DNA of 64,000 nt from Phoronis australis (GCA_002633005.1 NMRA01000269.1:124001-188000), one strand, 5' to 3'. Shown: positions 281 through 58,844, counted from the stretch's first letter. Program-made: numbers and translations. The notes: generated by a model not told the origin, from the sequence alone.

Positions 281-502
281 CCCCCTCTGGCGCCATCGTT
301 CCCGCTACAGTTAGTGGCAGTTCGAGCACCAACTACATGGTCGAGTTCACACCTAAAGAAGTGGGTCACCATAAGGTCAACATCAAGTACGCCGACGTGA
401 CTGTGGCTGGAAGTCCATTCGATTGCAACGTGTATAATCCGAACCAGGTGAATTGCACCAAGGTGGACTCGACCAAGCTGGGTTCCAGAGTGACTATGGA
501 TA
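281..502 (+). CDS. filamin exon E1
   Basis: ttacag|cc ... a|gtaagt; PSGAIVPATVSG...GSPFDCNVYNP; 222 nt, phase 1-1. Confidence 0.93.
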
Positions 503-3500: not shown

Positions 3501-6500
3501 CCGGTCTGCACACCATTGATGTCACCTACAATTATGAGAAAGTGAAAGGTATCGCTTGTTACTTGCGCATCTAAAGTAGTTTTGAAAGGAAACCTGACAG
3601 TTTTGACATGTTTTACCACTTTTTGTCTATTAGAAATAGCTTGGACACGTGGTAAAATCTATCCAATTTTGTCCAAAGATAACTGTCAGAATTTTTTTTC
3701 ATCGCTGGGAATATCGCTGTTTCTCAAACATTGTCTGCTGCTGGTTATGGTGAAGAACTTGAAAATGATAAAGTATTTTTGCAAAAATGAAAGATTAAAG
3801 ATTATTGTTCCCCGTTATTGTGTCTTAAGTTTGGGAAAGAGCGAGGGTTGTGCAGTAACACCGGTTTACGGAATATTATGCACAGAATAACTTTAGAACT
3901 ATAATCTGACGTTCTTCTTGCCAGAATGACCTTGATGACAAATTTAAGAAATGAGGACCTTTCAGTTTTTATCGTTAAACATTAAATTATTATCATGAGG
4001 AGTAACGTGACCAATAAAGTACTCCTGACATGTTGTAGGATCTCCCTTCTCGATCAACATCATTGATCCTAACCCGCCGATTCCGTTCATCCATGATGTA
4101 CGCCAAGAGAATGCCGTCTATCGCTCCAGCTCCTATGACATCGTCGACAACCCTATCTACCAGTCAGCTGGCAGCACTGTTGTTGAGACCAGGACACATC
4201 GTTCTAACCTTCAGGATTTGTCAGCGTTCTTAATCTCCTTGGGTGGCACACAGTATAACATAAATGATCTTCAGCTGGTGGTCACAGGTTGTGGTCCTAT
4301 TGTATCTGTCTTCCACACTTTTTAACTTGCCTGCTTAGAATTAAAAAGAATACAATGAGAATAGTTATATCAACCTTCATGAAGTCCTTTCACAATTCTT
4401 CAGCCATTAAAACAATCCCGTGAGTCTTTTTGATTGCTGATGTCTCCGTTGTGTTAAGGAAAATCTCAACTCAGAGACAATGTTTGCCCGGCCATATACC
4501 ATAAAGTAAGTTTACAAAAATTTGATGTCAATCAACCCACACATTAAAAGGAAAACCTGTGTTAAATCCTACTAAAAGCATCGAAAATGAAAAGTCCTAA
4601 AATGGCCGATAAAGATTTGTCATGTAGTTGAAATCTACAGAAACTTTGTCGACTAGTTTGCATATTTGGTGCATAAATGATGCAGTGAAAGAAATTTTGT
4701 GGATGGCAATGGAAAGAAATTGCAGTTATATATATTTTTTTAAATTTCCATGAAGGTTAACAATTTCCCATAAATTTTTGAAATTTTTAATAATAGCAAC
4801 AGTACTGAAAGAGACGCTTACCACTGATTTTCAACTTTTTATGACACAATGACTTTCATTTCTTACGCTCATAAATCAAAAGTCTGGGGTCATTGAATTT
4901 TGTGTCCACTTTTAGATACAACACTAAAAATTATATTTCATAGCAATTCATGTCATTTTGAAAGAATATCAAGAATAAATTTTGGTTAGCCTGGCTTAGG
5001 AAGTTTTTAACTATATCTTTGCAAGAAGTAAGAATATTCTTGAATAAGGTATATTATGTTTATTGTCCAATATTCAATCATTCTTTAAACGAGGTTGCTC
5101 TCATTCAAGTTAGATCTTTCAACAAGCTTGACATGACGTCAAACTTGATGGATCATTCGGACTTCGCCTTTAACTAATTCAAAGACTGACACAACATCAG
5201 GCGCAGCATCAGGTGTTGTGGCGCTAGTTGTCTTGAGGGTTGTGACTAAGTAGGACGGAGTAAGTCGTTGGTCGTACGCCATCTCAGTGTAAGTGTAGTG
5301 TTCGTGTATCACCTTCTTTGTCTCTCTTTCTTTCCCCCTTTGTGATGTGAGTCATGTGACTGAGGTGTGCGAGTGGTTGCTTTTAGTGTTGAAATACATG
5401 GCTGAACCCGACGCAAGTAGACGTGATTTGTTAATTCACGAGTAAGGGTCGCTGTTATTCAGTGTTGATATTTCAATGTTTTAGCTCCAAATGGCGAGCA
5501 GGTTCCTGCCAAAATCCTTAAGGCACCAAACGGGGAGTATAAAGTGGAGTACTCAACGACTCATGTTGGTATGTACGGACTGGTCTCAATTGATACCAAT
5601 TATATTTCTCATATTCAGTAGCCTTTTGGCCCATTTCACAAATGAAACGTGTTACAAAACATAGTGTGACCCTTGAATAACGAGCTGTGTACTTTTCCCG
5701 GTATAGGTATTTTCGACAGGATTTTTTCTTCCTTGTGTTTCGTTATCATATTAAAGCAGTGGAAAATGTTGGATTTAGTTAGCAAATGCTGTTATGCAAA
5801 TAGACTTCTGTTGTTGCCTTCTGATGAAAGTTATTTAGGGGTGTAGGGACACTTATCAGCCGTACTCGAGATGTAGTCTTAGCACAGACCAGATAACATT
5901 TTGTGCCTCATCACATACAAGTGATAACGGAAAAAGACACTATGGACAATCTCTCAGTAACGGTGATTTCATATATGTGATTTTTTCCAGGTCGTCACAC
6001 TATCGACATCTACTACAATGGTCAAAGAATTGGCGGTAGTCCATACTTTGTTGACGTGTTTGACCCTCAGCGTGTGCGAGTGGATCAGGAGTACTCCAGG
6101 CAGGCATTTGTCAACCAGGAAACTGGACTTAGAGGTGAGGGCATTGGCAGTGCGTGTTCGAGTTGGTTTTGAACGTAGTGCAGTTGCTTTGTTCATGTAC
6201 TATTCCGCTGGAAGGAGTCTATCCCTTGTCGTGAAAATAGAGGAATTATTGAATAAGGTCAACTTCATTTCCAGGCATCGATTAATATCGAGATATCACA
6301 TGATAGAGGGAACATCTGGGCAATGGAGCTACATCTGTTGTGCCTAAAAAAACAAAATTTCCTATTAATGTATTACAATGTATTTAACAATATCAGTTGT
6401 TTTGATTGTAGGTCACTTAGGGTTGTCTTTTATGCAATTTCTGTAAAGATCCATACAGTGAATTTGCTACTGGCAATTAAATGTTGTCATTGTGCAGTTT

Positions 6501-9500
6501 ACGTCAACGTTTATGTAGTAGAAATACAGTTAGATAGTAGTAGTTAACAGAGCCACTGATCTGTCTAGTCAGTTGTGATAATACACCACCCTCTCTTTTT
6601 CCCCCTCTTGTTCCCTGGGCACATCAGATATCGACGAAGCTATTGCAGAAATTGACAGAGTAGACGACTCTACACCCGGAGGTAGATGCTGTGTAGTGGA
6701 GTTTTGCTTCAATCACAATGTGGTAGTTTGGAAATAGTGTCGTATTTGACTCTCATTTGAATTGCACAGCTTTTAGCTTGGAATGATGTTCTGCTTTGAA
6801 GCTATCCACGAAGGCTCATATCAGTCTAGTCCACTATTCCTTTGTGTATGACTACACATCGCTTTCCCAGCCTTCTTATTGGTCTATTGTTACCACATGA
6901 CCTGAGTTTGGTCAGCTCTTGGCTCTCATAGGCCGATGATTGTCACGTGTCCTTAGGCATTCTCTTTCTTACTATAATCTCGCGTTTCAGTACACCTTCT
7001 TAGTTACAGCCACATTGACGTACGTTCTAAAACTTGTACATTTTCCCACCCTTTTCCATCCCTATTTTCAGCATTTTTCATGCCTCCACTTGCCCCTCTT
7101 ACCAAAGATTATTATGTTTTATTACTTGTAATTGTTAGTCATAATAAATGACCTTATTTCACCTACCTCAGTCTCCATTTCATCTCTGATAACAAGCTTG
7201 TGATGCACGTATCATTTATATATTATTCGGGACATATGTCGATCTTAAGTATGTTATTAGTTGGTTTGATATTGACTACATAACGTACAATAACCACATT
7301 GGATTTCTGCATTCAACTGAAAATAATTGTCATTATTGAGAGACACGACCTGAATATACCTTGAGGCCATTTCTATTTTCAGGTGTTCAAAACTATAATA
7401 TTTAACCATTTTAAAAAGCTGGCCCAAGTCTTAACTCAAACTGAGAAGATATCTTGACGTGATGCAGACGATAAAAACGACTTGTAACTTGTTACGGCTT
7501 CATTGCAGTGTTTTCCCAGGAGGCGGGTCGAGCTGACCTGACGGCCATGGTTTACAGCCCTTCGGGTCAGGTGGTCCCTCACCAGATACTGGAGACAACC
7601 AACGGTACCAGGATTGCATACAACCCTGCCGAGTACGGCATATACAAGATCTACGCATATTATGGCGGTGTGGAAGTACCAGGTACTGGAGTATAAGGGC
7701 ACGACTTGCTTTGGTAGGACAGGACTTAGGATTATAAATAAAAATCAGACAAATTGATGATTAATGACTTCGTAAAGTACAGTATATGCCAAAAGTATTC
7801 AGACAGAACTACCCAGAATTCCCTGTCATGGCGGCTGGGCAGAAGTCCAATTCATCATCAGAGTACCTTTCCACATGTCTGATAATGAAAGCGAGTTAAC
7901 AGGAAAGTTGGTAAGGTGTTTAGCCATTCCGCTATAAGAATTTTGCTGCCCTAATTGCCCGTTAGCAGTCGTTTTTGCTGTTAACAGAATTGCAGCTGTC
8001 ATGAGGGGAAGCGATCTTTTGTCATAACTTCTGCCACGTAATACGTTCATTACTAAACGTCAATTTGGTCTATTTACACAAAGCTATTGCCTATTTACAT
8101 TGGTTTGGCAAAAGAGTGTTCATCATTAACCTCTAACAGTGCTCTGTTGAATGTTATAACTCTTAAAAATGGCTAGATGTTGGTGTAAATGGAACTGTTA
8201 CAATAGAATTTAAGTTGATTGCAATCAGGGATGACCAATGTTGAGGAAAAGGTGTCTTGAGGTATCATTAGTAATTATTTCCCCTGTCACAATTATAGCT
8301 ATTCAACCAGTCCAGTGCTTCGACTTTCCTGGGCATCATGCAGTGTTTTGGTTGACCTTCAGATTACCTGTGTTTGTGTGCAGAAAGTAGGCAGCTTCAT
8401 CTAAGTTGATTTGATTCTTATTTTAATGTACAGCTGTAAAGTTTTTGTTTTGTTATTTTCTTTCGATAAACAATATCGGTTGTTTTCCCCCGTGATGATT
8501 ATTAGTTTTAGAACAGCTTATTGTATAATGCATGAGTGTCACTTTGTCACGGAATTTTATTCAGTTTGATTTTGTTTGGGGAATTTGATTATTATTAATT
8601 CCATACTTTGTCATATTAGTTCATTTTTACTCAAATGATCTTTGCCTTGATGAAGGCAAAGACTTTGAAGAGGTGCCATTTTGTTTGGAAAATGACTATA
8701 CAAAACAGTAATAACAAAAATTGTATATTTGTAAAGTCGAGATATTAAAAAGTTATTAAACATCCTATAAGATTTCTACTAATGTTCAACCTTGAGCTGT
8801 TCATTTGTTCAATGTCTCAATGATACCAATAAGTCGTAATTTTGTAAAATGCCTAACGACAAAAATTGGAACTCAGAATCTAATCAAAATGGGTCTTGGC
8901 CTATCAATAAGGAAATCGGTTGCTACTGCATCGTTATTCAATTACAGTTCGATTAATCATTGCCCTCTTAGTGTTGACCTTTCAATTATAACAGTACTAT
9001 TTTTCTAATACACGCAGGGATGCCGCTGTTGTTAGATCTATAAACCATGCTATTATCTTCCTTTCATTAGGGTGCCCCATCGTGCAGGAGATCCGCGCCA
9101 ACCAGGCCAACATCACAGCCCATGGTGACGGCCTCGTGATAGCTGAGGAAGGAAGTCCCGCCACATTCTATGTCGACTCTCATGGCGCCCCTGGCGATCT
9201 CTTCGTTGAAGTTGGAAGTAGGTTTTCTTGCATTAATCTCATGCACGTATCAGGTTTTTTAATTATTTTTGCAATGGATGTAAAAAGGTGTCATGTGGCT
9301 GGAGCACAGGCACACCAAACTCAATCTCAGAGTTTCCAAGCTCCTCTTAAGGTTATGCATGACCCTAACGTTCCAATTTGCCTTACTTTGGAACATCGTA
9401 TCTGAGAAATGGCAGATCGGTCCTATTATATCCTTAGCATTTTGTTAATTTAAAGGAATTAGGGATGGGGGGAACACTGGTAACTTTTGCCAGAAACATG

Positions 9501-12500
9501 CCTCGAATGTGACACTGTCCATGGGGTGTTTACTAAGATTGTGTAATGCTGAATTGGTTGCTGGTTCCCGTTTGGTTATTATCCAGCTTGCACTGAGAAC
9601 AACCTTGGTCTGACTAGGTCATGGGTGAATTAAACACATCATTAAATCCAAACTCTAGACTCGTGACTTCATAAGAGTGGGTGAAACATTTTATACTTTG
9701 ACTATTTTCACTCAGTTATGAATTTTAGTCAAACTTTATTCATGGCAGAAGCTAAGTTCAAAACGTCTTGAGATATCTCAACTTTTTTTTAATTTCTAGC
9801 TTCCAACTCTCTCGCTAAGTGTAACATCGTACAGGAGAGGGAAGGGTATTATCGAGTCACTTATACACCTGTCGAATGTGGCGTCTACGATGTACAGATA
9901 AAGTGGAATGACAGAGAAATCAATGGTAAACCTTAGCTGCAAAGCAATAATCTTCAAAAAAATTGTGCTTCTTGCGTTCTTGTTGATGCCTGTATAAAAT
10001 ACTGAAACTAAAGCGAAATTGTATGCAGTACAGGTCGTAAGTAATCAGACAAAATACCGTTTTTCAATCATGGCCCAAAGTTTGTTAACAGCAAAAATGA
10101 CTGGTAATTACAGAATGGCTTAGCTACCTTTCTGACTTAATTCATTATGGACGCTTTCTCTAACAATGAAGTAAGCTTCCGCCCAGTTGTCATGACTGCA
10201 AATTGCGAGTCATTTTGTCTGAATACTTTTCGCTTGTAGTGTACATCAGTCTTGATAAATTGAGAGAATCAAAATTCCTGTTTTGAACACTTCCTGCCCT
10301 TGGTGGATATCATCAGTTATAAAAAAATTTGGAAATGAATTTGATATCGTGTAATAAGTAGACTACGTTTTTGCTCTGGGTCAGTGAGTTGAGAACACTG
10401 TAAAAATAGTCTTTTTTGAGACCGCATGTCTGTGGTTTTGATCCATTTGAGAACATTAATATTAATTAAGGGGATTGTCAGGTATGGAAATGTTGTTATA
10501 AGAAAAAAATCTAGTCCTTCAAAACATAGCCTGTTTATGACAAAAATTGAATGTAATGTCCTAAATTGGAGAATTCTATTACCAATCATTTGTGGTATAA
10601 CCTTCACTGTTTCCCAGGAAGTCCTTTCCATCCGCAAGTCATTGACACTCGTCGCGTTGCGGTGGTGGGCGGCTGGCATAGCGTGATGGACACTGAGAAC
10701 AGAGTTCACCTAGTGCATAACGAAACTAAGAGGATCGTGATGGACACGACTACTGCTGGACCGGGCAGTCTGGAGGTCACGGCTACTGGACCTGATGGGC
10801 GTCAGATACCGGTCAACATCCATCAGCAGAATGATGGCAAAACGGTGATCACTTTCACACCTGTACAGACAGGTAAAGTCACGTTTTTACAATTTGGTTT
10901 TTCATCGGTGCAACGTGGAGCATCGTTTTCGTTGTTGTACAACGGTACTGTTCCCAGTGTCTGCACTGAGAGTTGTAGTTGTTCGAGGCCCCAACACTGT
11001 TTTAGCCAATGCGTTGATATTAAGCAGAGCATTTATTCATGCAATTGTGCAGTTCCAGTTATTTGAATGAGGGTTAGCCGTCCTAACTACGCTTCATGAT
11101 AAAATGGCAATAGACCTAAAGGAACACAACTCTGCTGTATAATCCTCACCAGCCCTCAAATCCTTAGGACAAGTTTGAAAGTTACTAGCAAAGTTAGGGT
11201 GAGGGACTTGGGATTGGCCTGGCAGTTAGCGTGACGGACATGGCAGTTATTGTGGCAGACCTGACAGTTGGCGTGACACACCTCCCAGTTAGCGTGACAT
11301 TTCTAGCAATTAGCATGACATATGTGGCAGTTACCGTGACGTACCTGGCAGTTTGTGTGATGGACCTGTCAGTTGACGTGACTGACCTGGCAGTTGGCAT
11401 GACGGACTTAGCAGTTAGCGTGACGGACATGGAGGTCACATTAAGTTAGGGTAAAGTCTGACATGCAGTCTGATCACAGGGCACGCTTTTTGCCAAATTA
11501 AGAACTTCTTGGAGCTGAATACTGAAGGTGCTAATATTCAATACCAGGCTGGTGGCAAAATAAATTCTGTGAAGTAGCCAAAACAGCTTTTTAGTATCCT
11601 TTTTAATTTCAATTTCGACTGGTAGTCTCAGTAGTTATAACTCTACCTTTTTAATTAGATCGTGTACCAATATTTCATTGCTTAATATTTTGTTGCTTCT
11701 GAGGATAAGTTTGGATGTTTTCATGTAGTGCGAGTGGAGCTAATCCTAGTTGTCTCTAGGCATTAAAGTTTATTTTTCTCCTCCCAGGTGAGCACCGGCT
11801 CAGTGTGTTGTGGTGTAAACGTCACATTCCTGGCTCTCCATTCCTATGTTATTGCCATGCTGTCAAACCAGCTGTTGATCACACTAAGGTCATTCTCACT
11901 GGCAAAGGATTGGTGGAGGCTAAGGTCAATGAAGAGGCAGAGTTCACCATCGACGGGTCACAGGCAGGAGAAGGTGAGGAATTTTACGTTGATTTATACA
12001 GTTTGTAGACTACTTGCAAGTTTCCAAACTTTGCAGAAAAGTGGGACAAAATCAACATTTTGTTGCTGTACCTCACATAAAGTCTATAGCCCTGCACAAG
12101 GAGAATGAACAATACTCAATATGCCAGCTTTGAAATACCAAGTTAGCACCACGACTGCAAGAGAAGTAGGACATAAATCCAACGTGCTTCATATCTCACA
12201 CAAACTGTATTTTGTTTGTGATTGAGTGATAGTGTTTGAAAAGCATATCACTTTCCAGTTGAGTGTTATAAACAATCTACAGAAATCACATTTACTGTAC
12301 TCATATGCAGAGGTTAATTCTGTGAACAGCAACCATTACTTCTGAATCAATGTGTTTTATGTATTTCATTGTGTTGTTGTTACTTTTTTATGTTATTCAA
12401 AACAATGTCATATCAATGGGTGTTGTAAATGAGTGGACGATGATCTCTAATGGTGACCTCTAGTCCCTGAATTCTTACTATATCTAACCAAAATTATCAC

Positions 12501-15500
12501 CTGTCAATCATAAAACAGCCCTTGAAATTTTATCATCCTACATCAATTCTGTTGAGAGTTCGTAGTTCTTGCAATTACAGTTGCTTTTTCCGATTGTTTT
12601 CAGGTACTCCATTTGTTGTGATTAATGGTGTGAAGAAAGACATTCCAGTGTTCACCGATGTTCTTGGTGGAGACCGATACAGGGTGCGATACACACCGGA
12701 AATCCCAGGTAAGTTGGCGTCTTTATGTCATCTCCAGGATAAAGTAAGCTGATACCATCATGTTCTCACTAGACAGCTTTCCCTATAGTGATTTCCAGTA
12801 AAAGTTAACATAAGATGTCGCTAACTTTGACAGTTCTAGATTTGGTCCTTCAAGCAGCTTTACGATGACGGCTTACTTTGATGACACCGATTATCAACTA
12901 TGACCTGACGAATGTGAAGTCACGGGTGTTATTACTGCCTGTTTGTTTCGAGACTTAGGCTTAACATTTAATTAAAATGAACAGTATCAATGTTGCTATC
13001 TGAGAAATGGATTTGATTAAATTCACGAATTAAGCTGATCATCATGCCAAACTCTGAAGATGATGAAGGATTATCTCTTCTCTGAGGCGCTTTCGTGAAC
13101 TAGCTGCCAGGCATACATCCGGAGTCCGCGGCTGTTTCTCCTAAAGCCCTTGAAGGATCACTGTAAAATTTAATAGTTGTATTCCTATGAATGCGGCCAT
13201 AGGTAACAATGACTTTCAAATGGATCTGACCACAGCTGAGCCCCCTATAGACAATTTTCTTTAACATTTGCCTGTGTATTTTTGAATTGTTCCTCGACCG
13301 ATTCTTAAGGCAATGATTGGACACTAACCCATTTTCATAAGGATCCAACCCATTCTGCACCACCTAGTGACCATGTTTTATGTTTAGTCAATGACAAATA
13401 CCTGCCATTACATTAACCCAGTGTTCATTTATTCCGTTCCACATCAGGAGCCTACCTTCTACACATCCAGTGGTCGGACAGAGCAGTCAAAGATTCACCA
13501 TTTAAGATCAATGTCATAGCAATGAGTGACGCTTCTAAAGTCTTGTGCTCAGGAGATGGCTTGAAAATGGGCATCTATGGCTCTGAGATAACATCTATGA
13601 TAGACACAAGGCGTGCTGGCCCAGGTAAAGTCAACACTTAAAAGTAATTGTCATAATCAGATAGGCAACTGTCATTCAAATGCTGCAAAGAGTATTTGGA
13701 GTATTACTACAGTTTAGCCATGCATTTTGTGAAATGTAGATTAACCAATAGGGCTGTCCCAGATTACACGGCAATAGAATTCTCCTTTGTCCTGGATATA
13801 AGAAAGAACATTAGCTGGTTTTGGAAATCAGGCACCCGTGTCTCTCCATGAAGTCAGAAAGCTGGAGAATTTCAGATGGTCCAGTTTATCAAACCGTTTC
13901 ATGTCGCAGTAATGCAGCCCACAGCACAGCAGTAATACTTTGTTGGCATTGGAAGGACAAATAGAGTAATGCAACAAAGAAAAACTTGTAAAGAATCAGA
14001 CATAGAATCAGACAACAAATAACATGACTGTGGAACTCAAGCAGCACAAAAACGAGGCAGCAAATGTGTCTGACTGATGATTAGGGCATTATGGGTAAAT
14101 ACAGCAAGATTTGAGTGTCGCTGTGTAATCAGGGACGACTCTTTCATTTTTGTATTTCATTGCCAACAATATTCAAAGTAAAATCTTTTATGTTCTTGTA
14201 ATGATGACTGACAGTGATGGGACAAATTGTGTTTGTGTCAATGTCAAGTCATAGTGTCAATGACTGCATCAAAGCATAGAGTATACACGAAAAATACTCT
14301 GTTCGTCATGATAAATAATGACCTACCGTGACTTTTTTGTCACTGACATTGAAAGGGGTTCTGTTTTCATTGAGTCATCTTGTGGGGGGAATTATGCCCG
14401 GGAGCATTCACTATGATGGGGAATTAGGGCTCATTTTGTCTGAATATTGTTGGTGTGCACTGTCTGCATGCACATCTGTGACTATTCCAGAATGGAAAAG
14501 GTTCGTAACTGTTGTGTAAAATGTAATGCCGAATAAGGACTTTTGCAATGTAGGTCAGTGTCCGGTTGCATGGAACACTCCCAAATAGTGACTGTGACTC
14601 AACTAAATTGTGTATTTGTGTCATTGTTTGAAGACACATACGTACAGTCCATAAATTACATATGATTTTGATATAAGATAGAGAAACAGGAGATGCTTGA
14701 GGCATTTGTTGCATTGTGGGTATAAACCTTAGAATGAGAGTGTTGCCGTCATATTTCGGGATGAGCATGTAATGTTCACGTGTATGCAGGGTGATCCATT
14801 GTACCCATTTTTTTGTGCACAGGCGAACTGACAGCACAGTGTACAGGTCCCTCAAAGGTGGCTTATTGCGAGTTGTATGACCACAGAGATGGCACATTCA
14901 GTCTCAAGGTGAAGGCTCAGGAACCTGGAAAGCATCTCCTTCACATACGATATGGTGGCGAAAACGTGCCAGGTACAGCTCAGTGTAGTTTGTCCGTTTT
15001 ATGATGCAATACCAACCAACCAAAGGAAGATTAGTGTTCATCCCATTAATACAATTAAACTGGCATGCCTGCCCCGTTTTTTTTTTGTTTCAAAAGGAGG
15101 GGGCCTCGGGGCCCACCCAAATTCACCAATTGAGCAGTTCAGCTCAACATGACTTTAAACTTTTAAGCATGATATACGTTTTTCATATTTCACATGTAAT
15201 GCCCTGCTTGAGAAAACACCGTACTTGTTAGAGTACATAAATTGTTGAAGTATATTTTCCCAATTTGGCACAAACTTCTGAAGTCATTATACCCTTATAA
15301 TGGTTTCTAGGTAGCCCATTCGTTCTCAAGGTGGCAGCTCCACCTGATGCTAGGATGGTGAGAGTGAAAGGACCAGGTGTAGAGCATGGCATCTTAGCTA
15401 CATTCCAGAGCAGGTTCCTGGTGGAAACAAAAGGTGCAGGAGCTGGTCAACTGACTGTGAGGATTCGGGGGCCAAGAGGTCAGTGGTGCCTGTTGCAAGT

Positions 15501-16397
15501 CACATGAAGACTCAAGTCTCACAAATCCACAATTTTCCATAAATTAGATAAAAACTGATTTTAGTTGTAGTCAAAGTAGTTTTATGTGGTTGGAACTTCT
15601 GAATTTTTGAAGAGTTATGACAAAATGTGCTTGTATTCCTTTTTTTTAATCATGCAATTGCTGCTGACAGGATAGTCTCAAATCACTAAAACACCATCAT
15701 TCGGCATGACGGGCAGCCTCTGACAAAATGTTTGCACTTGCTCCATGGACTGTGTGGTCATACATGCATTTAATAAGCAGCTAATTTTTTTTAATCGCCT
15801 GACCATATTGTAAGTGTTGCAGCAAAGATAGATCAGCAATTACCTGTTTATGACCACAGGATGTTTATCCTATTTTCCTGTAAGCTTTTCCAAGGAGTAG
15901 TCACGAGTCATGCACAGCTTGGCCTCACTGACTGAAGCACGTGGCTGAATCAGATTGCTTGAGCTTATAAGGAGAAATGAGTGCCCAGTTTCTTAGAGCC
16001 TTCCATTTATGGCATGTCATTGATAAGCTTAATGCAACTTCGGGAAACTGAGCTTTGTTGCTGTCAGCGTTGGACTGCCAACAAAAACTGTGTTTTACTT
16101 AAATTTTGCCGGTTATTCATTTCAGGTGCATTCCGTGTTGAAATGCAAAGAGAAACTTCTAAAGACCGATGTATTCTGTGTCGCTTTGATCCAACAGAGG
16201 TTGGTGATTATGTCATCAGCGTCTGCTGGTCAGGAGAGGACGTACCAGGTAGTCCATTCCACATTCAAATATTCGACACACAAGAGGAACTGGATGACTT
16301 CATTCGGCACGGCGATATCAGGAACAGGAGTTTCACCAAACCAAACACCTCTATTTACAGCGACTACGGCAGACGGTCGTGGAATGCAGAGATCTAA
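281..16397 (+). CDS. jbug: Filamin, jitterbug/FLN-2 type; 3' part of a spliced gene (18 exons; 5' part lies outside the window)
   Basis: 18 GT-AG exons splice in frame into tandem filamin Ig repeats (AG.G.L...GP.G, Y.V.FTP.E.G.H, GSPF motifs). The last repeats (KVAYCELYDHRDGTF; GPGVEHGILATFQSRFLVETKGAGAGQLTVRIRGPRGAFRVEMQRETSKDR; GSPFHIQIFDTQEEL) match the Drosophila Jitterbug C-terminus as I recall it, not Cheerio/FLNA. Stop TAA at 16395-16397. Confidence 0.9.
560..815 (+). repeat. old interspersed repeat family (other copies at ~7790-8005 on -, ~10040-10240 on +)
   Basis: Shared blocks acagaatg(a/g)cttag, agcttc(t/c)gccca, gagtcattttgtctga.tactttt; the reverse complement occurs in intron 9. 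Confidence 0.55.
1442..1615 (+). CDS. filamin exon E2
   Basis: tttcag|tt ... a|gtaagt; DCRNAGEGDLSAEV...SFVPKEASTHTVDVSFN; 174 nt. Confidence 0.93.
1816..1962 (+). CDS. filamin exon E3
   Basis: tttcag|at ... a|gtaagt; APMAIDVVDDRLVTVQGD...DLNIRIV; 147 nt. Confidence 0.9.
2693..2914 (+). CDS. filamin exon E4
   Basis: gcacag|gt ... g|gtaagt; YRVEFTPAEVGGH...GSPFTCYVYD; 222 nt. Confidence 0.93.
3375..3548 (+). CDS. filamin exon E5
   Basis: ttccag|tg ... g|gtatcg; DASEAGQGDIDVEV...YSFIPEEAGLH; 174 nt. Confidence 0.92.
4039..4287 (+). CDS. filamin exon E6 (contains a non-Ig insertion)
   Basis: ttgtag|ga ... g|gttgtg; GSPFSINIIDPNPPIP...DNPIY...NDLQLVVT; 249 nt, open frame. Confidence 0.85.
5485..5568 (+). 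CDS. filamin exon E7
   Basis: ttttag|ct ... g|gtatgt; PNGEQVPAKILKAPNGEYKVEYSTTHV; 84 nt. Confidence 0.9.
5991..6134 (+). CDS. filamin exon E8
   Basis: ttccag|gt ... g|gtgagg; RHTIDIYYNGQRIGGSPYFVDVFDP; 144 nt. Confidence 0.93.
6628..6681 (+). CDS. candidate 54-nt alternative cassette exon (DIDEAIAEIDRVDDSTPG)
   Basis: Pyrimidine tract + catcag| acceptor, g|gtagat donor, phase 1-1, open frame. The duplicate at 46801-46854 differs mostly at codon third positions. Confidence 0.6.
6830..7250 (+). repeat. intronic remnant of the Ngaro-like terminal repeats (A and B boxes)
   Basis: gagtttggtcagctc.tggctc.catagg and tcataataaatgaccttat are shared with 34905-35405 and 57882-58345. Confidence 0.5.
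7509..7682 (+). CDS. filamin exon E9
   Basis: ttgcag|tg ... g|gtactg; FSQEAGRADLTAMVYSPSG...YNPAEYG; 174 nt. Confidence 0.92.
9071..9217 (+). CDS. filamin exon E10
   Basis: cattag|gg ... a|gtaggt; CPIVQEI...AHGDGL...ATFYVD; 147 nt. Confidence 0.9.
9800..9925 (+). CDS. filamin exon E11
   Basis: ttctag|ct ... g|gtaaac; GYYRVTYTPVECGVYDVQIKWN; 126 nt. Confidence 0.92.
10618..10872 (+). CDS. filamin exon E12
   Basis: tcccag|ga ... g|gtaaag; GSPFHPQVID...AGPGSLEV...ITFTPVQT; 255 nt. Confidence 0.93.
11213..11433 (+). repeat. 21-bp minisatellite, about 10 units
   Basis: Unit consensus GACCTGGCAGTTAGCGTGACG. Confidence 0.9.
11788..11973 (+). CDS. filamin exon E13
   Basis: tcccag|gt ... g|gtgagg; EHRLSVLW...IPGSPF...GKGLVEAKVNEEAEFTIDG; 186 nt. 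Confidence 0.93.
12604..12708 (+). CDS. filamin exon E14
   Basis: tttcag|gt ... g|gtaagt; DRYRVRYTPEIP; 105 nt. Confidence 0.93.
13448..13624 (+). CDS. filamin exon E15
   Basis: catcag|ga ... g|gtaaag; AYLLHIQWSDRAVKDSPFKINV...DTRRAGP; 177 nt. Confidence 0.93.
14823..14972 (+). CDS. filamin exon E16
   Basis: gcacag|gc ... g|gtacag; ELTAQCTGPSKVAYCELYDH; 150 nt. Confidence 0.93.
15311..15478 (+). CDS. filamin exon E17
   Basis: ttctag|gt ... g|gtcagt; SPFVLKVAAPPDA...GAGAGQLTVRIRGPR; 168 nt. Confidence 0.93.
16126..16397 (+). CDS. filamin terminal coding exon E18
   Basis: tttcag|gt; AFRVEMQRE...GSPFHIQIFDTQEEL...SWNAEI*. Confidence 0.93.
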
Positions 16398-33506: not shown

Positions 33507-33559
33507 CATGAGGGGTGATGTATTCACTTGTCGTTACTAGCAAATAAATCCACAGAAAA

Positions 33560-35405: not shown

Positions 35406-35630
35406 CTTATTTTAAGTACACTGTAAAAATTGGCTTTGTTGAAGTCACATGTTTGTGGTTTTGATCCACTTGAGAACATTAATATTAATTAAGAGGACTG
35501 TCAGCTATGGAAATGTTTTCATAAGAAAAAAAATCTAGGCCTGTTTATGACAAAAAATTGAATGTAATGTCCTGAATTGGAGAATTCTACCAGTTATTTG
35601 TAGTATAACCTTCACTGTTTCCCTTGACAG

Positions 35631-35885
35631 GAAGTCCTTTCCATCCGCAAGTCATTGACACACGTCGCGTTGCTGCGGTGGGCGGCTGGCATAGCGTGAT
35701 GGACACTGAGAACAGAGTTCACCTAGTGAATAACGAAACTAACACGATCATGATTGACACGACTTCTTCTGGACCAGGCAAGCTGGAGATCACGGTTACT
35801 GGACCTGCTGGGAAAACGATACCGGCCAGCGTCCATCAGCAGGATGACGGACAACCGGTGATCACATTCACACCTGTAGAGATAG
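35631..35885 (+). pseudogene. duplicate filamin exon E12' (copy A)
   Basis: 255 nt, open frame, AG/GT intact; flanking intron 11/12 homology spans 35418-36090. Confidence 0.92.
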
Positions 35886-36155
35886 GTAAAGTCACGTTTT
35901 TACAATTCAGTTTTTCATCTGTGCAGCATGACACTATCTTTTCGTTGTTGCACAACGACACTGTTCTCAGTGTCTCCAGTGGGAGCTGCAATTGTTCGAG
36001 AGCTCACATTGTTTTAGCCAATTAGTTGATATTAAGCAGAGCACTTATTCATGCAAATTTTCGGTTCCAGTTATTTGAATGAGGGTTAGGAATCCTGTTG
36101 CCGGTTGCATGAAACAGTCCCAAATAAGGACTCAACGATGTTCCCTAAAGCTATA

Positions 36156-39100
36156 CAGGGTCGTAGGAAGCGGGGGAGGGCACGGGCCCCCCAATACTTT
36201 TCAAGCGTCAGGGTTAAACCGTGGCAACCGACATACATGTACACATGAGGCGGGGACAGTTGAGAAAAGAAAGACTGCTAAATGCGGAAATGAGAAAATT
36301 CAAGAGAACATATAGCAATTCTGTATCAGTGTATGATTTACCTTTGAGGTCCCTGGCCAGGACATAGTTTTTGGGAACTCCACTTTCGCAGCACAGGTAG
36401 TGCACGTAATGATTCATGCATGTATTTGGAAAAATCGAAAAAATCTGTAAAGCAAAGTTTTTGCGGAAGCATTTACTTGATTTTTGAATTCAAAAGTCAA
36501 AACTTTGCAACTGCAAAACCATATTTTTTCAGGGGCCTCTCTCTGGGAAGGGATAACGGAGACAACTGTCGCTTTTTCCTCGAATTGTATATCACTTGAT
36601 GACCAGACGGATATCATTAATTGCTGCACATTTTCAGATTTTTCAAAATACAGATATTTTCATATTAAGAGGCTCCATCCTTGAAGGAGACCATTGATGA
36701 CATTCGAGTGGTCACCCTTTTAAGGTTTTTATTGACAAATTCTTTAGGGTCCGCTTGCTGATAGAGGGTTCATAGTAGGAATGGGTTACGTCTAGTTTCC
36801 TGTTCTTGTGAAATCGTGCAACCTACTTTCATGTTGAACAAGGTCACCTCCAGCACCGTCTTGTGACCACACGACGTTGGAAGGAACTGACACTTTTTTC
36901 CAAGCTTAATGATGTTTAGCCTTTCATAATTAAGGTGTCTCCTTTCAGACGGGGCCCTCTCTCGGTGGACCAGTTCATGGAAATATACTTTTGTCCCTCT
37001 GTACTTGTAAATCCGACACAGCCAAGTATTATCGAGGGAAGTTGAGATTCCAAATTCACCAAAAACAAAAAAAAAACAGCACAGCAGTATAAAGAGATTC
37101 GACCCAAACAACCAAAAAATGTAAAAAATACAATAAGATTGACCGCCATCGAAAGAGTGGAATTTTGTACGTGAAGTCAACTATTTGTAAATTACACGAA
37201 TGGTCTATTTCCGAGGGTTACTTATCAAATAATGTTATTGTTACCCATAGTATCACAAGAATAGCATCTCTTTTGAAAATGGTTACGATGAGTTGTTTGT
37301 AAGGAATTCCCACATGTGGAAAACACAGTTTTCGAGGCTACCATTGGGGTGACCGTGTACATGTCGAACGAGTGTACTCAAATACTCTCAATAATAAACA
37401 AATATTTCAGCGTTTTTTTGAGGTCAAGTTAAAACTCGTGAACCGTTATACGTTCTTCGGAAATGAGCAAAAATACACCTTACTATGAGTCTCCCATTTT
37501 CCCCAGCTAAAAATTTGCGAGTATGGCTGCAGAAATTGCTTATAACATTCCGTTTTGATCAACAAATGTGTTGGTTTCTAATTTACATGTTTATGTGTCT
37601 ACGAAAGCCGTCAGGTTAATTAAATGATTTTGGCAATTAGAAGCTAATCTTTTAAGGAAGGATGACGATTCAGGGAATTTAGTTGAAGCCTGAATATGGA
37701 AAACTCTATAATCAGATCCCCGAATAGGAAAGTGCACTTGGACTCTTTTTGCCTATCTAAAATAACTCTCAAAAACTTTCCGAAATTTGTACACTTCCCA
37801 AAAATTTACTCCCAATTCAAATGACAATAAATACAAATACATTGCTCTTTGACTTTGCTACAAGATTTATTGTTTAAACTCACGAACAGGGGATCAAAAA
37901 GGAATTAAGTCATTAAATCAAGGTAAACGCATTGCTCATGGAATTGATTGTTGGTGTCTGATTTACATCTTTATGTATCTACGAAAATGGACTTATTGAG
38001 ATATGATTTTTTGACAATTAGAAGCTAATCTTGTAAGAAATGACAATGCTTCAGTGAACGTAGTTGCAAGCCGACATTGGGAAAATTTGATCTATTACCA
38101 GATCCCCAAATATAAAAGTACGCTAATTTGTTTTTGTCTATCTGAAATCTGTCTCAAGGAAATTGACGAATTTCGGAGAGCTCTACAGAGTTGTCCAAAA
38201 TGCTATCACAATTCAAATGACAATAAATTGTTTATTGGCTTAGGAACTACATTACTTGGTTTAAGTTTACAAACCGTAGATCGAAAACGATGTTTAAGTA
38301 CTTAAATCAATGAAACCGAACTCATTGGTCATCAACTTGGAAAGGTTCTCTTTGCACTTCCTTGACCTTTTTAGTTTCCAGTAGTATTGCGCAATGGATT
38401 TTTGTTCAAAACTGAATCGTTTGCTTGCATTTCCCGTGCGTACTACACACACGGCATGCGCGCACCCAGTCTAATATTTTTGAGGATGTGAACCTTTTAC
38501 GAAAGAAAAAAATACGGAATACGGGGTTCGTTGGGGGCTATGAATTGTGCATATGCCAAATTCCTGCCTTTTTAGTGGACTTTTAGTGTGTCGCGTTTCA
38601 CGGACATTTTGTTTATTTGAGGCGGACCTTTTTGCCCAAACGGGGGTTCTTTTGAGCCCCCTTGGGTGCGCGCATGCACGGAGCGCGTCATGATTGGCAC
38701 ACCCACTGTAAAAATAAGGTGGAACCATGCAGTAGGCCTGCGTAGAATCTCAGTTACCCACGTGAGCTGAATTTGAACTCCAGACGTTGAGGAGTGTACA
38801 TTTTTGGGACACACTCTATATCATTTCCCCCAGCAACCAGAAACTAGATTACCGGCTGTGTTTCATTTAGGGATTCTGAAACGTCCACAAAGGCACTCAT
38901 ACGTCGGGACCTCACCTTTACAAAAAATTACTAAAAGATATAAAGTTTTCCCGAAACTGGATCATAATAAAACAAACATTGATCTTCGACCCAGAGCAGA
39001 GGAATATGTAAGAATACACTGTTGGAACCCACCTATAGCTACTTTCGGCAGGTTCCAGCTGCTCGTCAGTGCGCTGGACCTAGACCCAATCTTACTCTTC

Positions 39101-39257
39101 GTGAAACTTTGGTGGTGGATATGCAGGAGGGGATTTGGTACAGCTATGGTGACACCCAGAGAACGGGGGGGAGGGGGACTGGCGATACCAAGGGAGTAGG
39201 TTAACGATGTCAAATTGGTTTGTGCCCCTCAATAATTTTCTCCTTCCTACGGGCCTG
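36156..39257. mobile_element. 3.1-kb non-autonomous DNA transposon with CAGG..CGTAGGAAG TIRs and 5-bp TSD (paralog 59115-63058)
   Basis: cagggtcgtaggaag / cttcctacgggcctg; TSD ctata/ctaca here and ctaca/ctaca in the paralog. Confidence 0.75.
38455..38676. mobile_element. CATGCGCGCACCCA MITE (also 57448-57602 and 62290-62509)
   Basis: Perfect 14-bp TIR; TSD cacgg/cacgg. Confidence 0.8.
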
Positions 39258-39571
39258 CTACAGCATATTTGTGGGTTTGTGAGAACACTCAATGTCCTCT
39301 TAAGCTCTTTGAGTCTCATTACTAAGTCAATTTTTGTCTTTGATACAATATCGAAAGTAAATTCTACGTTTAATTCCCAATATTATTTAAAATAAGTAGG
39401 GATCTTTTCATGCAACGCCCCTAATTTATGGACTAAGTCCCTAATTATTTTAACTGAATTAAGGGCTCAGTTTTCTGTTATATTATTAGGAAATGTCATT
39501 AACGAAATAACAGCTCACAATCAAGATAAATGACAGAAAAAATACTATGCCTGTGAGTGTAGCGCAAAACN

Positions 39572-39929
39572 AGGTCTCTGAACCATCTAGAAAGATTACC
39601 GTGTCGTCTTCATATTGCATTAATTTATACTCTAAAGAGCCTACTTTTATGCCTTTAACATTCTCGCATTGCCTCAACTTAGATGCCATAATTTCGGCAC
39701 ACAAAAAGATGAGGTGAAAGGGGATCCCCTGGTCTGCAACCTCGGCAAATGTTAAATTGCTTAGACCTAAAGCCATACTGAATGACCAAAAGTTGGACAC
39801 TTTCATTGAGTATTGTGAACCAACGGATATCATCAAAATTGAAAGGGTGTAGAACCTTCTTAAGAAATCCCCAGGACATAGAATCAATGGCTTTTTCAAA
39901 ATCAATTAATACCAGAAGTCCGGGAATAC
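39572..39929 (-). mobile_element. L1/Tx1-type LINE reverse-transcriptase fragment (5'-truncated end)
   Basis: DFEKAIDSMSWGFL, RGCRPGDPLSPHLF, LMQYEDDT (YADD box); frameshifted. Confidence 0.88.
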
Positions 39930-39994
39930 AGATGTAGGGAACTTAGTTGAGTCCCTATTTGGGACAGTTTCATGCAGCCGAGCACTGATTACAC

Positions 39995-40246
39995 TCCATG
40001 ATAAAACGACTGACCTAAAGGAATAAAACTCAGCTGTAATCCTCAACAGTCCTCAAATCCTTGGGACAAGATTGAAATGTTACTTGCAAAGTTAGCGTGT
40101 GGGACGTAGCACTTAGGGGCATTTGCCTGGCACGTAGTGTGATGGACCTGGCAGTTATCGTGACCGACTTGGCAGTTGGCGTGACAGACTAATGTCCGTT
40201 AGCGTGATCGACCTGGCAGTTGCTGTATTTAAAGTTAGAGTAAAGT
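39995..40246 (+). repeat. copy of filamin intron 12 with a shorter 21-bp minisatellite
   Basis: Matches 11093-11457. Confidence 0.8.
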
Positions 40247-43101
40247 TAGCCAGCCAGCTAGCTGTGTGAGGAATATCGTCAAAACACAGCTAAGTACCAC
40301 TGTCTGTTCAGTGCCGATAGACCTCAAAATTGCACACAGCCAGTGTAGTTCTGCTCGTCACCTCGCCATGAAACTTGCATTAGCATGTAGAGCTAAAGAC
40401 CGGACGGGGTGCATGCAAAATCTGGGAGTCAACCGACACTCACCTTTCCTGTTACAACTGTTTAAGTGCTATAAACGTCATTTTCTTGCGTAATTCTCCA
40501 CCTTTTGTAACAATGAAAAATATGTCGTCGTATTGAAAATGGTACACTGGTGACATGCTCACGCGCCAATTCCTAAAATTTTGTTACATCTCTCGGCAGA
40601 TGATGACAGCTTTGCAGCAGCAAAACTTGTTCTGAAATTCGATTTGATGGTATCAAAACTCTAAAAACTTAAAGTCCTTCTCTCAAACTGCCCATGTGGT
40701 TCCAGTTTCCGAAAATACTTACTATATAAAATCTTATTTTCGACACCCTTTCTTTATATTCTTTTCGCCTTTCTTGCCAAAAGCGATTTTTAACAGTATT
40801 TGACCCTTCTCTCTGAGCGTATGATTACCGGTTGTCATCGGTTATTTCCGTACCCACATTTCCGGCTCATCAGTTCAGGAACTTGTCCTGAACGCCGCCA
40901 TTTTTTCCTTGTAACTGAATGTGCTATGGCTTGCTCGAAAAGTCTTCATTATTTTGTTTTATTAGTAATATATAGTGATTCTTTTGCATATGTAATGTAT
41001 TTATAGTTTGTAGTTAGTGGTCGTTGATTTTTTTTGGAATGTTACGCGTACTTAGTATGTTAAAATAGTATTGGTGTTTAGTTCCTTACGTAGGCCGGTC
41101 GAATCTAGGAACCAATATGGGTCGAAGCAATTTTTTCGGTTTTATTTTTTTCCTCGTTTTGAAAAAGTACTTTGCTATCATCGGAAAGGTAATACATTCT
41201 ACTCCGTAAAAATCGAAAAAGTATCAAAATCGGAGCAAGCACTGTAAAGTTATTGCAAGTTTTCTGGCGAAATTTGGGTCACTTTGTTTGGATCGCGTCG
41301 GCCATATTGGAGGACAGCGGGATAAGTTACGAGTTTAAAACTTTGTGTAAATTGTTTTCGCCAACAAATTACGGTGAAATTTAGTTACTTACTACTCTGC
41401 ACGATTTAACGGTGTTCACCAAGTTTCAGTCTCGCAGTTGTTACTCATTATGTGATAAATGTGCTCGCAATTCCCGTTGGACTTCGTCTCATTTCTGGCG
41501 GCCCCAACATGGCGACTTTTGCTGAACTGAAAGGCATGTTCAATCGGCTACTTTGTTATTTGTGAAAATTTAACGTTGATACATTTTGACAAACGTTGCT
41601 ACAAAAAAGAAACTTTGTTCAATTTTCGTGTTTTTTGTGCAAAAATATAAGATATATTCGAATTATTTCAGGTTATCAAGTCAACAATATGAATAATCTT
41701 AATTTGAGAAATAAGCTATGTTGGATTGTGAAGCTTCAAGCCTCTAATTACTTGCAACTTCATTTTTTTAAATGATGCTTGTCAAATTCTGGTGTAAGGA
41801 AACACTATTCCGTCACCATGGTAATAGTTACATATATGTCCACTTTCATATCATGGAAACTGTTGCTGTTTGAATAGGGTTTGTAATGCTAAATGTTGTA
41901 AAGTATTGTGCATTTTAAGTTACTTATTATGTTGGGTTAATGAATAAAAATTGATAACATGTTGTATTGGACTTGTCATACTTAAAGATAGTAAAAGATA
42001 GACATTCCCAAAAATTCCAGCCCCCCATTCTTTTAGGCTTGTTGCGCTCATACAGAGTCTGGGAAAATCTCTATTGAAAGCCAACAACTTTGCACAGTTC
42101 GCCAGAAGTACCCAAGTTCTAAATAAACCTCGTGTGAACGAGCGCTGTGGCCAGCGACCAGTTAGGCCTAAGGGTAGGCTTGGCGCAAAGCTGTATAGGC
42201 CTACTAACAAGCTGTATTTTGACGGTAGTCTTCACTGGTAGCTGGTGACTGAGGCTAACTAAGGTCTGCCGCGGCAGTGTGACAAAGGACTAGCCAGCTC
42301 GTAATTTCATGCAAGTGTCTGAAACTACCCTTGAATATATGCAGCATTTATGATTTGACCATTCTATTTCGACAAAACAGCTTGCAACCGCATGCATTTA
42401 CCGTTCGCCAGTGTCTGGTCTCGATCCGCACCGGGTCCGATAAGCTGCGGTCCCGAGTCTGGCAAAATAATTTCTGTCAAAGTTTATTCGCCACATTTCT
42501 TCAGCAAATTCCATGAAATTGTCCGTAGTTTGATTTTATCAAAACTATGGCGCGCTGTCAATTATTTTATCCCCGTTTGCTGGCTGGTAACAGTACAGGC
42601 ACTGCTCCAGTCGCACTGACGGCGTTTTCTCGGCCTTGGTTCCTGAATGAATTGTACTTCCGGGTTCGCGGTAAGTTCAAAATGGCGCGTTCATTTAAAC
42701 TTTTTTCGAGTACGGATCGTGTATTAGTTATGGGGTAGGTACTTCTTGGATCTTTATAACATCTTCAAACCATGTAATAAGGGTTAACAACGCGTGAGAG
42801 AAGGACTTTAAAATAAAGTAAAACCAGTTCCAATAATTTGTTGTGGCGTGTATGCAACCATTTGAAAGAACAACTGATTGAAGAATCGGCGAAAAAAGAA
42901 ACTGACCAATAGGTGACGCAATATTTCATGGCGCTGAAAGCCAATGCAGCTCGCTCCACAATTTTAGCAGCAGAATAAGGGTAGAACACCAATTTTTCCA
43001 ACATCGTTAAATAATTTAGATTACTCATGGAAGAGTATAGTTTTTGATGATACTTATTTTGTGTCAGATTTTATCCGGTCATTTTTTTACCTGCAAGGCT
43101 A
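40247..43101. mobile_element. 2.85-kb insertion with TAGCC...GGCTA ends and ~9-bp TSD (Mutator-like?)
   Basis: Empty site gggtaaagt at 11449-11457; here gagtaaagt on the left and tggtaaagt on the right. Confidence 0.6.
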
Positions 43102-43457
43102 TGGTAAAGTCTGACACGCAGTCTAATCACAGGGCACACTTTGCGGCAAATTAAGAACTTCTTGGAGCTGAATACTGAAATGATTTTAGCTCACAATTGA
43201 AGGTGCTAATATTGAATAACAGGCAAAATAAATTCTGTGTGAAATAGCCAAAACAGCTTTTTAGTATCCTTGTAATTTTAATTTGGACTGGTAATCTCAA
43301 TAGTTTCAACTCTAGCTTTTCAATTAGATTGTGTACCAATATTTCATTGCTTAATATTTTGTTGCTTCTCAACATAAATTTGAATGTAGACTTTGTTTTG
43401 TTTGTGAGCAGAGCTAATCCTGTATCTAGGTATCATCGTTTATTTTTCTCCTCACAG

Positions 43458-43643
43458 GTGAGTATCGTATCAGTGTGTTGAAGCGTGGACGTCCCATCAA
43501 TGGCTCTCCATTTCTGTTTTATTGCCATGCTGTGAAACCAGCCGTGGATCACACTAAGGTCATTCTGACTGGCAAGGGATTGGTGGAGGCTAAGGTCAAT
43601 GAAGAGGCAGAGTTCACCATCGACGGGTCACAGGGAGGAGAAG
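43458..43643 (+). pseudogene. duplicate filamin exon E13' (copy A)
   Basis: 186 nt, open frame, splice sites intact. Confidence 0.92.
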
Positions 43644-44259: not shown

Positions 44260-44364
44260 GTACTCCATTTGTTGTGATTAATGGTGTGAAGAAAGACATT
44301 CCAGTGTTCACCGATGTTCTTGGTGGAGACCGATACAGGGTGCGATACACACCGGAAATCCCAG
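44260..44364 (+). pseudogene. duplicate filamin exon E14' (identical to E14)
   Basis: 105/105 identity by eye. Confidence 0.92.
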
Positions 44365-45525: not shown

Positions 45526-45756
45526 GAGCCTACCTTGTACACATCCAGTGGTCGGACAGAGTAGTCAAGGAGTCACCGTTTAAGGTCAATGTCATAGCCA
45601 TGAGTGACGCTTTTAAAGTCTTGTAACTGTACATGTAACATGTGCTGGCAATTTATTTGACAAATTGACATTGTGGGGTCCTAGACATTCCCTTTACTCA
45701 GTTGAATACTGCTTTTGTAGAGTTGTTCTAAAGATAGACGCACGTGCAAGGAGGGT
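45526..45756 (+). pseudogene. truncated E15' fused to a filamin 3' UTR copy; new in-frame TAA at 45624-45626
   Basis: Matches 13448-13546, then 16441-16573. Confidence 0.88.
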
Positions 45757-46181: not shown

Positions 46182-46325
46182 GGCGTCACACTATTGACAT
46201 CTATTACAACGGTCAAAGAATTGGCGGTAGCCCATACTTTGTTGACGTGTTTGATCCTCAGGGTGTCCTAGTGGATCAGGAGTACTCCACGCAGGCATTT
46301 GTCAACAAGGAAACTGGACTGAGAG
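46182..46325 (+). pseudogene. duplicate filamin exon E8' (copy B) within the intron7-intron8 copy 45756-47059
   Basis: 144 nt, open frame; 8 silent and 4 replacement codon differences versus E8. Confidence 0.92.
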
Positions 46326-46800: not shown

Positions 46801-46854
46801 GTATCGAGGAAGCAATTGCAGAAATTGACAGGGTCGACGACTCAACATCAGGAG
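46801..46854 (+). pseudogene. duplicate of the 54-nt cassette exon
   Basis: caacag| ... g|gtagat; GIEEAIAEIDRVDDSTSG. Confidence 0.6.
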
Positions 46855-50020: not shown

Positions 50021-50022
50021 AA

Positions 50023-50164: not shown

Positions 50165-50254
50165 NTAAAACTTAAGTTATTTTCCAAAAACTTAAGTTTT
50201 TTCGCCAAAAACTTAAGTTTTCAGCGAAAAACTTAAGTTCATATTTGTAAGGGC

Positions 50255-58589: not shown

Positions 58590-58844
58590 GAGGTCCTTTC
58601 CATCCGCAAGTCATTGACACACGTCGCGTTGCTGCGGTGGGCGGCTGGCATAGCGTGATGGACACTGAGAACAGAGATCACCTAGTGCCTAACGAAACTA
58701 ACACGATCATGATTGAGACGACTTCTTCTGGATCAGGCAAGCTGGAGGTCACGGTTACTGGACCTGCTCGGAAAACGATACCGGCCAGCGTCCATCAGCA
58801 GAATGACGACCAAACGGTGATCACATTCACACCTGTAGAGACAG
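58590..58844 (+). pseudogene. duplicate filamin exon E12'' (copy B)
   Basis: 255 nt, open frame, AG/GT intact. Confidence 0.92.

Follow-up and report, generated by a model that had tools for sequence, protein, structure and literature searches.

Filamins are usually slow-evolving scaffolds. For Jitterbug, the second-type filamin of Drosophila, the available text of the source (10.1101/2020.10.13.337626) describes repeat-only isoforms, one of which rescues denticle defects. The locus reported here resembles two of these isoforms, Jbug-PC and the functional Jbug-PI, in combining a second-type invertebrate filamin with products, here predicted ones, that consist of repeats without an actin-binding domain. 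The Jbug products are isoforms of one gene, whereas here we find a separate rearranged duplicate with one diverged repeat and one predicted chimeric repeat.

Sdic is said to be a fusion of two genes, each of its repeats being a separate gene. In the available sections of PMC7475035, the Sdic genes of D. melanogaster are described as young tandem copies beside their parent, with structural variants among strains, conversion and local positive selection. The filamin locus likewise has a young copy, perhaps one of several in tandem, next to the parent gene, derived by duplication and with new exon junctions in its transcripts. Unlike Sdic, a single parent was self-shuffled here, the units are apparently spliced into a single transcript and the parent has changed as well.

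Two further systems concern divergence that is confined to part of a duplicated protein. Between the human red and green opsins, the accessible text of PMC3924837 reports a local divergence peak that resists conversion. Our neighbouring duplicates also show a local peak of amino-acid difference with a likely conversion tract nearby, but the opsin introns are homogenised, whereas the introns here differ evenly by about 11%, so that conversion looks rare. In primate CEACAM N-domains, selection and gene conversion act on one Ig-type domain among paralogs, according to PMC8860441. CEACAMs sit at the cell surface, and their bacterial ligands and selected binding faces are known, whereas the protein considered here is a cytoplasmic filamin in which the changes do not keep to a single face. 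In the literature that we searched, from which subscription journals were mostly absent, we found neither a filamin-derived shuffled array nor selection on a single filamin repeat.

Parent Filamin Gene and Rearranged Copy

The window is a stretch of 64,000 nucleotides from Phoronis australis (GCA_002633005.1, NMRA01000269.1:124001-188000); all features below lie on its plus strand. It contains the 3′ part of an intact parent filamin gene (281..16397), with 18 exons and spliced joints in RNA. Its introns are phase-1 and GT-AG, and the stop codon is in the last exon. The first-pass annotation, which was made from the sequence alone, had not counted a 54-nt in-frame exon-like piece, E8b (6628..6681 in the parent, 46801..46854 in the copy). 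Neither version of E8b had a splice joint among the RNA joints listed, and the piece is missing from the orthologs shown in our comparison. Self-comparison found no additional exons of the parent at 17-35 kb, and this possibility was rejected.

E12 and E13 of parent and copy each scored above the curated cut-off for Pfam Filamin (PF00630), and the structure model of an ortholog matched filamin A/B/C repeats, which have the filamin beta-sandwich fold. The C-terminal repeats of the parent share 52-66% of their residues with second-type filamins of invertebrates (12 proteins), against 30-34% with seven vertebrate filamins and one jellyfish filamin. By identity alone, rather than by a tree, the parent would thus be a jitterbug-type (second invertebrate) filamin. 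None of the protein matches carries the name jitterbug, a label that comes from the first-pass annotation. The 5′ end of the parent, where a filamin of this type would have three CH domains, falls beyond the window.

Self-comparison of the window revealed a rearranged partial copy of this gene, which we call copy A. Three segments make it up: parent 10389-11110 corresponds to 35412-36123, parent 11447-13546 to 43100-45624 and parent 5581-6885 to 45756-47064. The first contains E12′ (35631..35885; parent E12 at 10618..10872), which is open, is spliced to E13′ and accepts a joint from E8. The second contains E13′ (43458..43643; parent E13 at 11788..11973), downstream of a 7572-nt intron, E14′ (44260..44364), which is identical to parent E14 and spliced to E15′ or E8′, and a truncated terminal exon, E15′ (45526..45626). 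A TAA stop follows immediately after the last E15′ codon at the rearrangement junction (45624), where 133 bp from the 3′ UTR of the parent (parent 16441-16573, copy 45624..45756) link E15′ to parent intron 7. The third contains E8′ (46182..46325; parent E8 at 5991..6134, which covers strands F-G of one repeat and the start of the next) and E8b′.

A second copy of E12, E12″ of copy B (58590..58844), lies past a scaffold gap of 475 bases (55289-55763), and may be a second tandem unit or an uncollapsed haplotype. Because the assembly has this gap and six single Ns, it may lack units or contain uncollapsed haplotypes. The order of the segments suggests an origin by tandem duplication of parent 5581-16573 followed by two internal deletions, one of E9-E11 and one of most of E15 to E18. 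Every copy exon found traces to this single parent, and the exons found give no sign of a fusion of two parents.

Transcription and Splicing of the Copy

Expression was assessed in three RNA samples from one study (X6, X7 and X8; counts are given in this order), with about 18-19% of each run read. Reads were aligned to the parent at 80% likeness and to the copy at 91%, and the results cover the best 15 of 61 (parent) and 15 of 62 (copy) joints and the best 40 of 782 and 40 of 800 variants. The E12′-E13′ joint across the 7572-nt intron was found in 58/34/15 reads, and parent reads should fail the 91% filter at this joint because the exons here include a block in which parent and copy differ at 45 of 216 nt (identity about 79%). 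These reads comprised 24/13/0 of type A and 34/21/15 of another type. At no less than 91% likeness, the E14′-E8′ joint had 44/17/13 reads and the E8′-E12 joint 28/29/0. Reads over the E14-E8 and E8-E12 joints could partly derive from the parent. Six parent-only joints averaged 24.5/31.3/21.2 reads, and copy-type joints reached 2.4/1.1/0.7 times that mean, in a comparison of two alignments that differed in threshold.

Read depth is consistent with these joints. Depth on E8 was 84/74/45 and on E12-E14 95-154, 84-148 and 41-78, whereas E7 (28/59/31), E9 (26/38/26) and likewise E17 were lower. Depth was 49/78/26 at 13521 and had dropped to 28/45/11 by 13548, on the other side of the E15′ breakpoint, which fits a terminal E14′-E15′ form.

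The copy units that are expressed vary among the samples. A parent-like letter at 35851 was present in 47 of 74, 28 of 47 and 17 of 17 reads, and some reads with parent-like letters at both 35851 and 35855 had only 1-3 further differences, so the majority belongs to a copy type other than A. No A-type reads were seen at these two sites in X8, which leaves copy A letters in two of the three samples, and letters specific to copy B were absent at neighbouring sites among the variants listed. A C at 35729 was considered as a third copy type and dropped, since parent reads can align there.

Transcription of the copy, which the first-pass annotation had missed, is thus evident, as is a new order of splicing, and we are highly confident that the copy is a real, expressed chimeric duplicate. 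Among the best 15 of 62 joints none led from 33300-35630 into E12′ (35631), and no 5′ exon or start codon of the copy was found. An RNA contig set (X5) had one parent-type contig, in a data type that cannot show absence, and Rfam gave 0 matches in 33300-47200.

Reading Frame, Predicted Product and Constraint

Together, E12′, E13′, E14′ and E8′ form a cycle of 690 nt whose four joints are in frame and which is free of stops over three rounds. According to the exon translations, the point at which E14 ends is also that at which E8 starts, namely the junction of strands E and F of an Ig repeat, so that E14′-E8′ splicing would yield a clean chimeric repeat, completed by strands F-G of E8′. A linker of about 35 residues would then be made up of what remains of E8′ together with the first part of E12′.

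We defined the parts that would fold in this shuffled order as a core of 132 codons (E12′ 2-33, E13′ 22-62, E14′ and E8′ 2-26). This core has two replacements and 12 silent changes, where 16.5 replacements would be expected if the copy were neutral (P = 1 × 10−5; P = 4 × 10−4 without E14). In the orphan or unused parts (E8′ 27-48, E15′ and E8b′) there were 11 replacements against 9.0 expected. These counts argue that purifying selection acts on exactly those pieces of the copy that would fold once shuffled. With its open frame, this constraint and spliced RNA, the copy does not look like a pseudogene. The first-pass annotation had proposed that both versions were translated for a time; in-frame splicing in all three RNA samples and constraint on the folding parts agree with this, the protein itself being predicted.

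The length of 690 nt and the open frame would also suit a circular RNA. The E8′-E12 joint is as compatible with a back-spliced circle as with a linear tandem array, and exon skipping in the parent could produce it too; it was missing in X8, the one sample without A-type letters. Stop-free circles are reportedly translated in a rolling manner.

Replacements Cluster in One Ig Repeat

The differences between parent and copy A are concentrated in a block of 72 codons (E12 codons 34-85 and E13 codons 1-21). A codon-by-codon comparison reproduced the earlier hand count of 29 replaced and eight silent codons with no stop or indel, split into 21 and four in E12 and eight and four in E13. The counts reported for the flanks also held, with replaced and silent codons numbering 1/2 in E12 2-33, 1/5 in E13 22-62, 0/0 in E14 and 5/3 in E15′; E8 has 4/7 plus one silent change in a split codon. 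Over the rest of the copied exons, with E8b excluded, 11 of 186 codons were replaced. Nonsynonymous divergence (pN) was 0.22 in the block and 0.027 in the flanks (Fisher P = 5 × 10−13), whereas pS was 0.17-0.18 and 0.12-0.13 (P = 0.36). Permuting the 40 replaced codons among all 258 put 29 of them into any 72-codon window in none of 20,000 trials; the clustering exceeds chance.

Strands were assigned on the model of an ortholog (mean pLDDT 89) that is about 40-45% identical and stands in for the spliced repeat itself. On this mapping, the block covers strands B-G of one repeat. The earlier statement that it follows the domain needs correcting, as only about three quarters of the domain are included: strand A and the A′ segment (E12 codons 10-33) lie outside with a single change, and the block as a whole domain was rejected. 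All strands from B to G are hit, with 18 changes in strands and 10 in loops. The CD face is the usual ligand-binding face of filamins, as stated in the available text of PMC1948075. Enrichment of changes on this face was rejected, with nine of the 19 codons in strands C-D changed and 20 of the other 53 (P = 0.59). The suggestion of a ligand- or pathogen-binding surface thus found no backing in changes that spread across B-G and the loops, and nothing in the analysis points to a pathogen ligand. The fold residues GPG, F80, P82 and SPF are kept in the parent and in copy A.

Both Lineages Appear to Have Changed

To place the changes on lineages, 74 homologous regions were collected, 72 were aligned and 38 were kept after dropping those over 90% alike. 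The outgroups are 44-55% identical, and the polarity of changes is therefore probabilistic. The nearest named protein, from Owenia, is 55% identical. Further searches for a close outgroup gave two distant matches among 229 candidates (E12 against longer proteins), 0 of 29 (three E12 versions against proteins of 46-147 aa) and, among metagenome contigs, two loci at 47% over 34 residues.

A fixed rule assigned 12 of the block sites to the copy and eight to the parent and left nine unresolved. With codons 60 and 63 set aside on account of a gap at codon 62 in 28 of the 38 orthologs, the numbers became 11, 7 and 11. The seven parent-derived sites (copy residue, then parent) are K51S, V56A, S67N, V68I and E84Q in E12 and G11K and P13H in E13. 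One or two such sites occur in the flanks, or at most five if unresolved ones are counted, so the comparison of 7/72 with 2/186 or 5/186 gives P = 0.002 or 0.04. These assignments indicate change on both lineages: the parent accounts for about seven replacements, the copy for 11.

A generally fast-evolving repeat was rejected as an explanation, as the mean pairwise identity of the block among the 38 orthologs (43%) resembles that of neighbouring segments (46% for E12 9-33, 49% for E14 and 42% for E9-E10). The parent block itself is 33% identical to the orthologs against 43% among them, the widest gap of nine segments.

Tests of Selection

Introns provided the neutral yardstick. Parent and copy differ at 346 of 3032 intron sites (p = 0.114), evenly along their length (mean 11.5 and variance 13.4 per 100-column window, 30 windows). 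Neutral evolution of both lineages at this rate would lead us to expect 17.5 replaced codons in the block, compared with the 29 seen (P = 0.002). Correction for scanning raises P to 0.009 when the scan is limited to the repeat and to 0.03 when it takes in all 258 codons. The whole repeat has 30 replaced codons against 24.3 expected (P = 0.11). At a neutral rate of 1.13 times that of the introns, the block P rises to 0.011 and the scan P to 0.04-0.13, and at 1.27 times to 0.044 and 0.13-0.37. Within the block, dN/dS is 1.2-1.4, which is not significantly above 1 (P = 0.46). Changed columns are about as conserved as unchanged ones (median 0.53 and 0.58, P = 0.62), and four of the 15 highly conserved columns differ. 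The earlier proposal that the repeat diversified under selection is therefore suggestive: the block favours it nominally and after scanning, and the whole repeat does not. Positive selection on the block is suggested by these comparisons, and the burst of change that both genes show in this domain was more probably selected than not.

Copy B tells something about present constraint. Its E12″ differs from E12′ at 11 codons, all replacements (13 nt), exactly as had been counted earlier. Polarised on the parent gene, the changes are 12 replacements and one silent; 13 of 255 nt matches the intron rate (4.0-5.4%), and at most one silent change in 13 has P = 0.11. Copy B has changed at the near-invariant S2 and P49, each shared by 37 of 38 orthologs, and looks unconstrained or like a poor allele. 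The earlier caveat of a possible present lack of constraint on the copies thus fits B, while the letters of A are expressed in two of the three RNA samples.

Discussion

The explanation that we favour, with middling confidence, is that the shuffled, expressed copy encodes a repeat-only protein and that strands B-G were driven apart by divergent selection. The neighbouring filamin gene was partly duplicated, and the copy is transcribed and spliced in the order E12′-E13′-E14′-E8′-E12. From a tandem array, the product would be a filamin-like protein made of repeats only. Each unit would contribute a divergent repeat, a chimeric repeat (strands A-E from E13′-E14′, strands F-G from E8′) and the linker; internal units would skip E15′, and the last one would terminate at the new E15′ stop. 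The product as predicted in the window has no actin-binding domain, would display the divergent repeat several times over, and could be a scaffold for, or a competitor for, that repeat's partner. Parent and copy, we propose, thereby came to bind differently.

The most serious rival accepts the expressed chimeric gene and holds that strands B-G simply lost constraint and drifted with dN/dS near 1 in both lineages. We consider this unlikely, though well worth keeping in view, since dN/dS in the block does not exceed 1, the whole-repeat test gives P = 0.11, conserved columns are not spared, the parent block has moved unusually far from its orthologs, and copies A and B have diverged at the rate seen in introns. 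Against it, the 29 replacements exceed what even full neutrality predicts, parent and copy A retain the fold residues, and neighbours of like conservation among orthologs show zero or one change. Full neutrality is a generous null for an intact, expressed parent, and we therefore rank divergent selection above lost constraint, if not decisively. A less probable alternative is that the block predates its flanks, as a captured, balanced ancient allele or as an island shielded by selection amid flanks homogenised by conversion, the model described for opsins in the accessible text of PMC3924837. A run of 161 bp identical in parent and copy (12555..12715 in the parent, spanning E14 at 12604-12708; chance P = 5 × 10−5) indicates a conversion event, pS is somewhat higher in the block than beside it (P = 0.36), and introns are slightly more diverged close to the block (43 of 291 sites up to 150 bp away, against 312 of 2807 elsewhere; P = 0.066), which lends weak support to such an island. 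Intron divergence is even, however, also in the intron inside the block (0.11-0.14), and the parent transcript of a sample from another study differs at just six sites in E12 and four in E13, at least four of them silent, with no deep parent allele seen in it. Selection would still be needed to maintain the difference.

That the copy is a transcribed but untranslated relic, with the E8-E12 joint arising from back-splicing or parent skipping and B being an uncollapsed haplotype, strikes us as the least probable of the readings. It would account for the missing start codon and 5′ exon, and for a B that lies past the gap, 4-5% from A, with changes at near-invariant sites; reads from parent E8, at 92% identity with E8′, would get past the 91% filter, and the E8′-E12 joint is absent in X8. 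Yet purifying selection falls on just the pieces that would fold when shuffled, copy-type E12′-E13′ joints reach 0.7-2.4 times the parent-only mean, and the E8-E12 joint is missing where A-type letters are missing although the parent is expressed there. Distinctly improbable, too, is a molecular conflict at one Ig repeat of a core cytoskeletal filamin, in which the parent repeat flees a parasite or selfish partner and an expressed array of shuffled copies, variable in length and perhaps also made as a stop-free 690-nt circle, presents the other version many times over as an intracellular decoy.

In both an intact parent and its young duplicate, one filamin repeat seems to have evolved no more slowly than neutral sequence, or faster. 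The self-shuffled exon cycle in which the duplicate is expressed would build a new chimeric Ig domain, and the length of the protein would vary. The locus is also a clear example of a new gene arising through phase-compatible exon shuffling inside one parent. The two repeat versions, 29 residues apart in a near-identical frame, are a ready pair for finding partners, and this pair could test conflict, paralog interference or lost constraint as the driver. FLN-2 of C. elegans is presumably the ortholog of this filamin gene, and its link to infection is a lead only. A nonsense allele of fln-2 lowers death from pharyngeal infection, as described in the available part of PMC6841690.

Mobile elements and duplications around the filamin copy

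The rearranged partial duplicate of the filamin gene (copy A, whose exons are primed) lies among several mobile elements. About 2 kb upstream of exon E12' is a broken LTR retrotransposon (29285-33510) with pieces of gag, integrase, reverse transcriptase and RNase H, which we take to be Copia-like from its motifs. The intron between E12' and E13' carries a reverse transcriptase fragment on the minus strand (39489-39942), presumably of LINE type. Two copies of a 1.4-kb element, 90% identical, are found at 48607-50593 and 60056-61497; the former is followed by an inverted copy of the element's first 330 bp, and the reading frame in the element is assumed to be THAP-like.

A direct duplication of 1.16 kb (96% identity) occupies 23655-26165, with a single N at 25013 between its halves, which may be uncollapsed alleles. 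Each half contains a segment matching intron 11 of the parent gene (10038-10395) at 83-86%, and the duplication may mark the original 5' edge of the copy.

Additional exon-like sequence and RNA signals

A 54-nt exon-like piece follows exon 8 in the parent (E8b, 6628-6681) and in the copy (E8b', 46801-46854). E8b is in frame, acidic and positioned in the interior of a filamin repeat, and has no counterpart among the orthologs listed. Sequence comparison of parent and copy gave two replaced and four to five silent positions; none of the RNA joints listed leads to either piece. Parent exon E6 (4039-4287) contains a long non-filamin insertion and lacks a Pfam Filamin match.

Upstream of E12', a C-rich stretch (33777-33828) is covered by sense reads only, up to 30, 17 and 5 in RNA samples X6, X7 and X8. 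These proportions approximate those of the spliced reads joining copy exons, and the stretch may belong either to a transposon transcript or to the copy's 5' region; the RNA joints listed include none from it to E12'. The 90 bp at 34643-34732, which have no Rfam match, are matched by about 900-1950 sense-strand reads per sample. Because these reads carry indels and uniform loose ends, their source must be an abundant RNA encoded elsewhere. Within parent intron 14, at 13234-13351, sense reads carry several copy-A bases together with other letters, suggesting copy-type RNA that is unspliced or has an alternative end.
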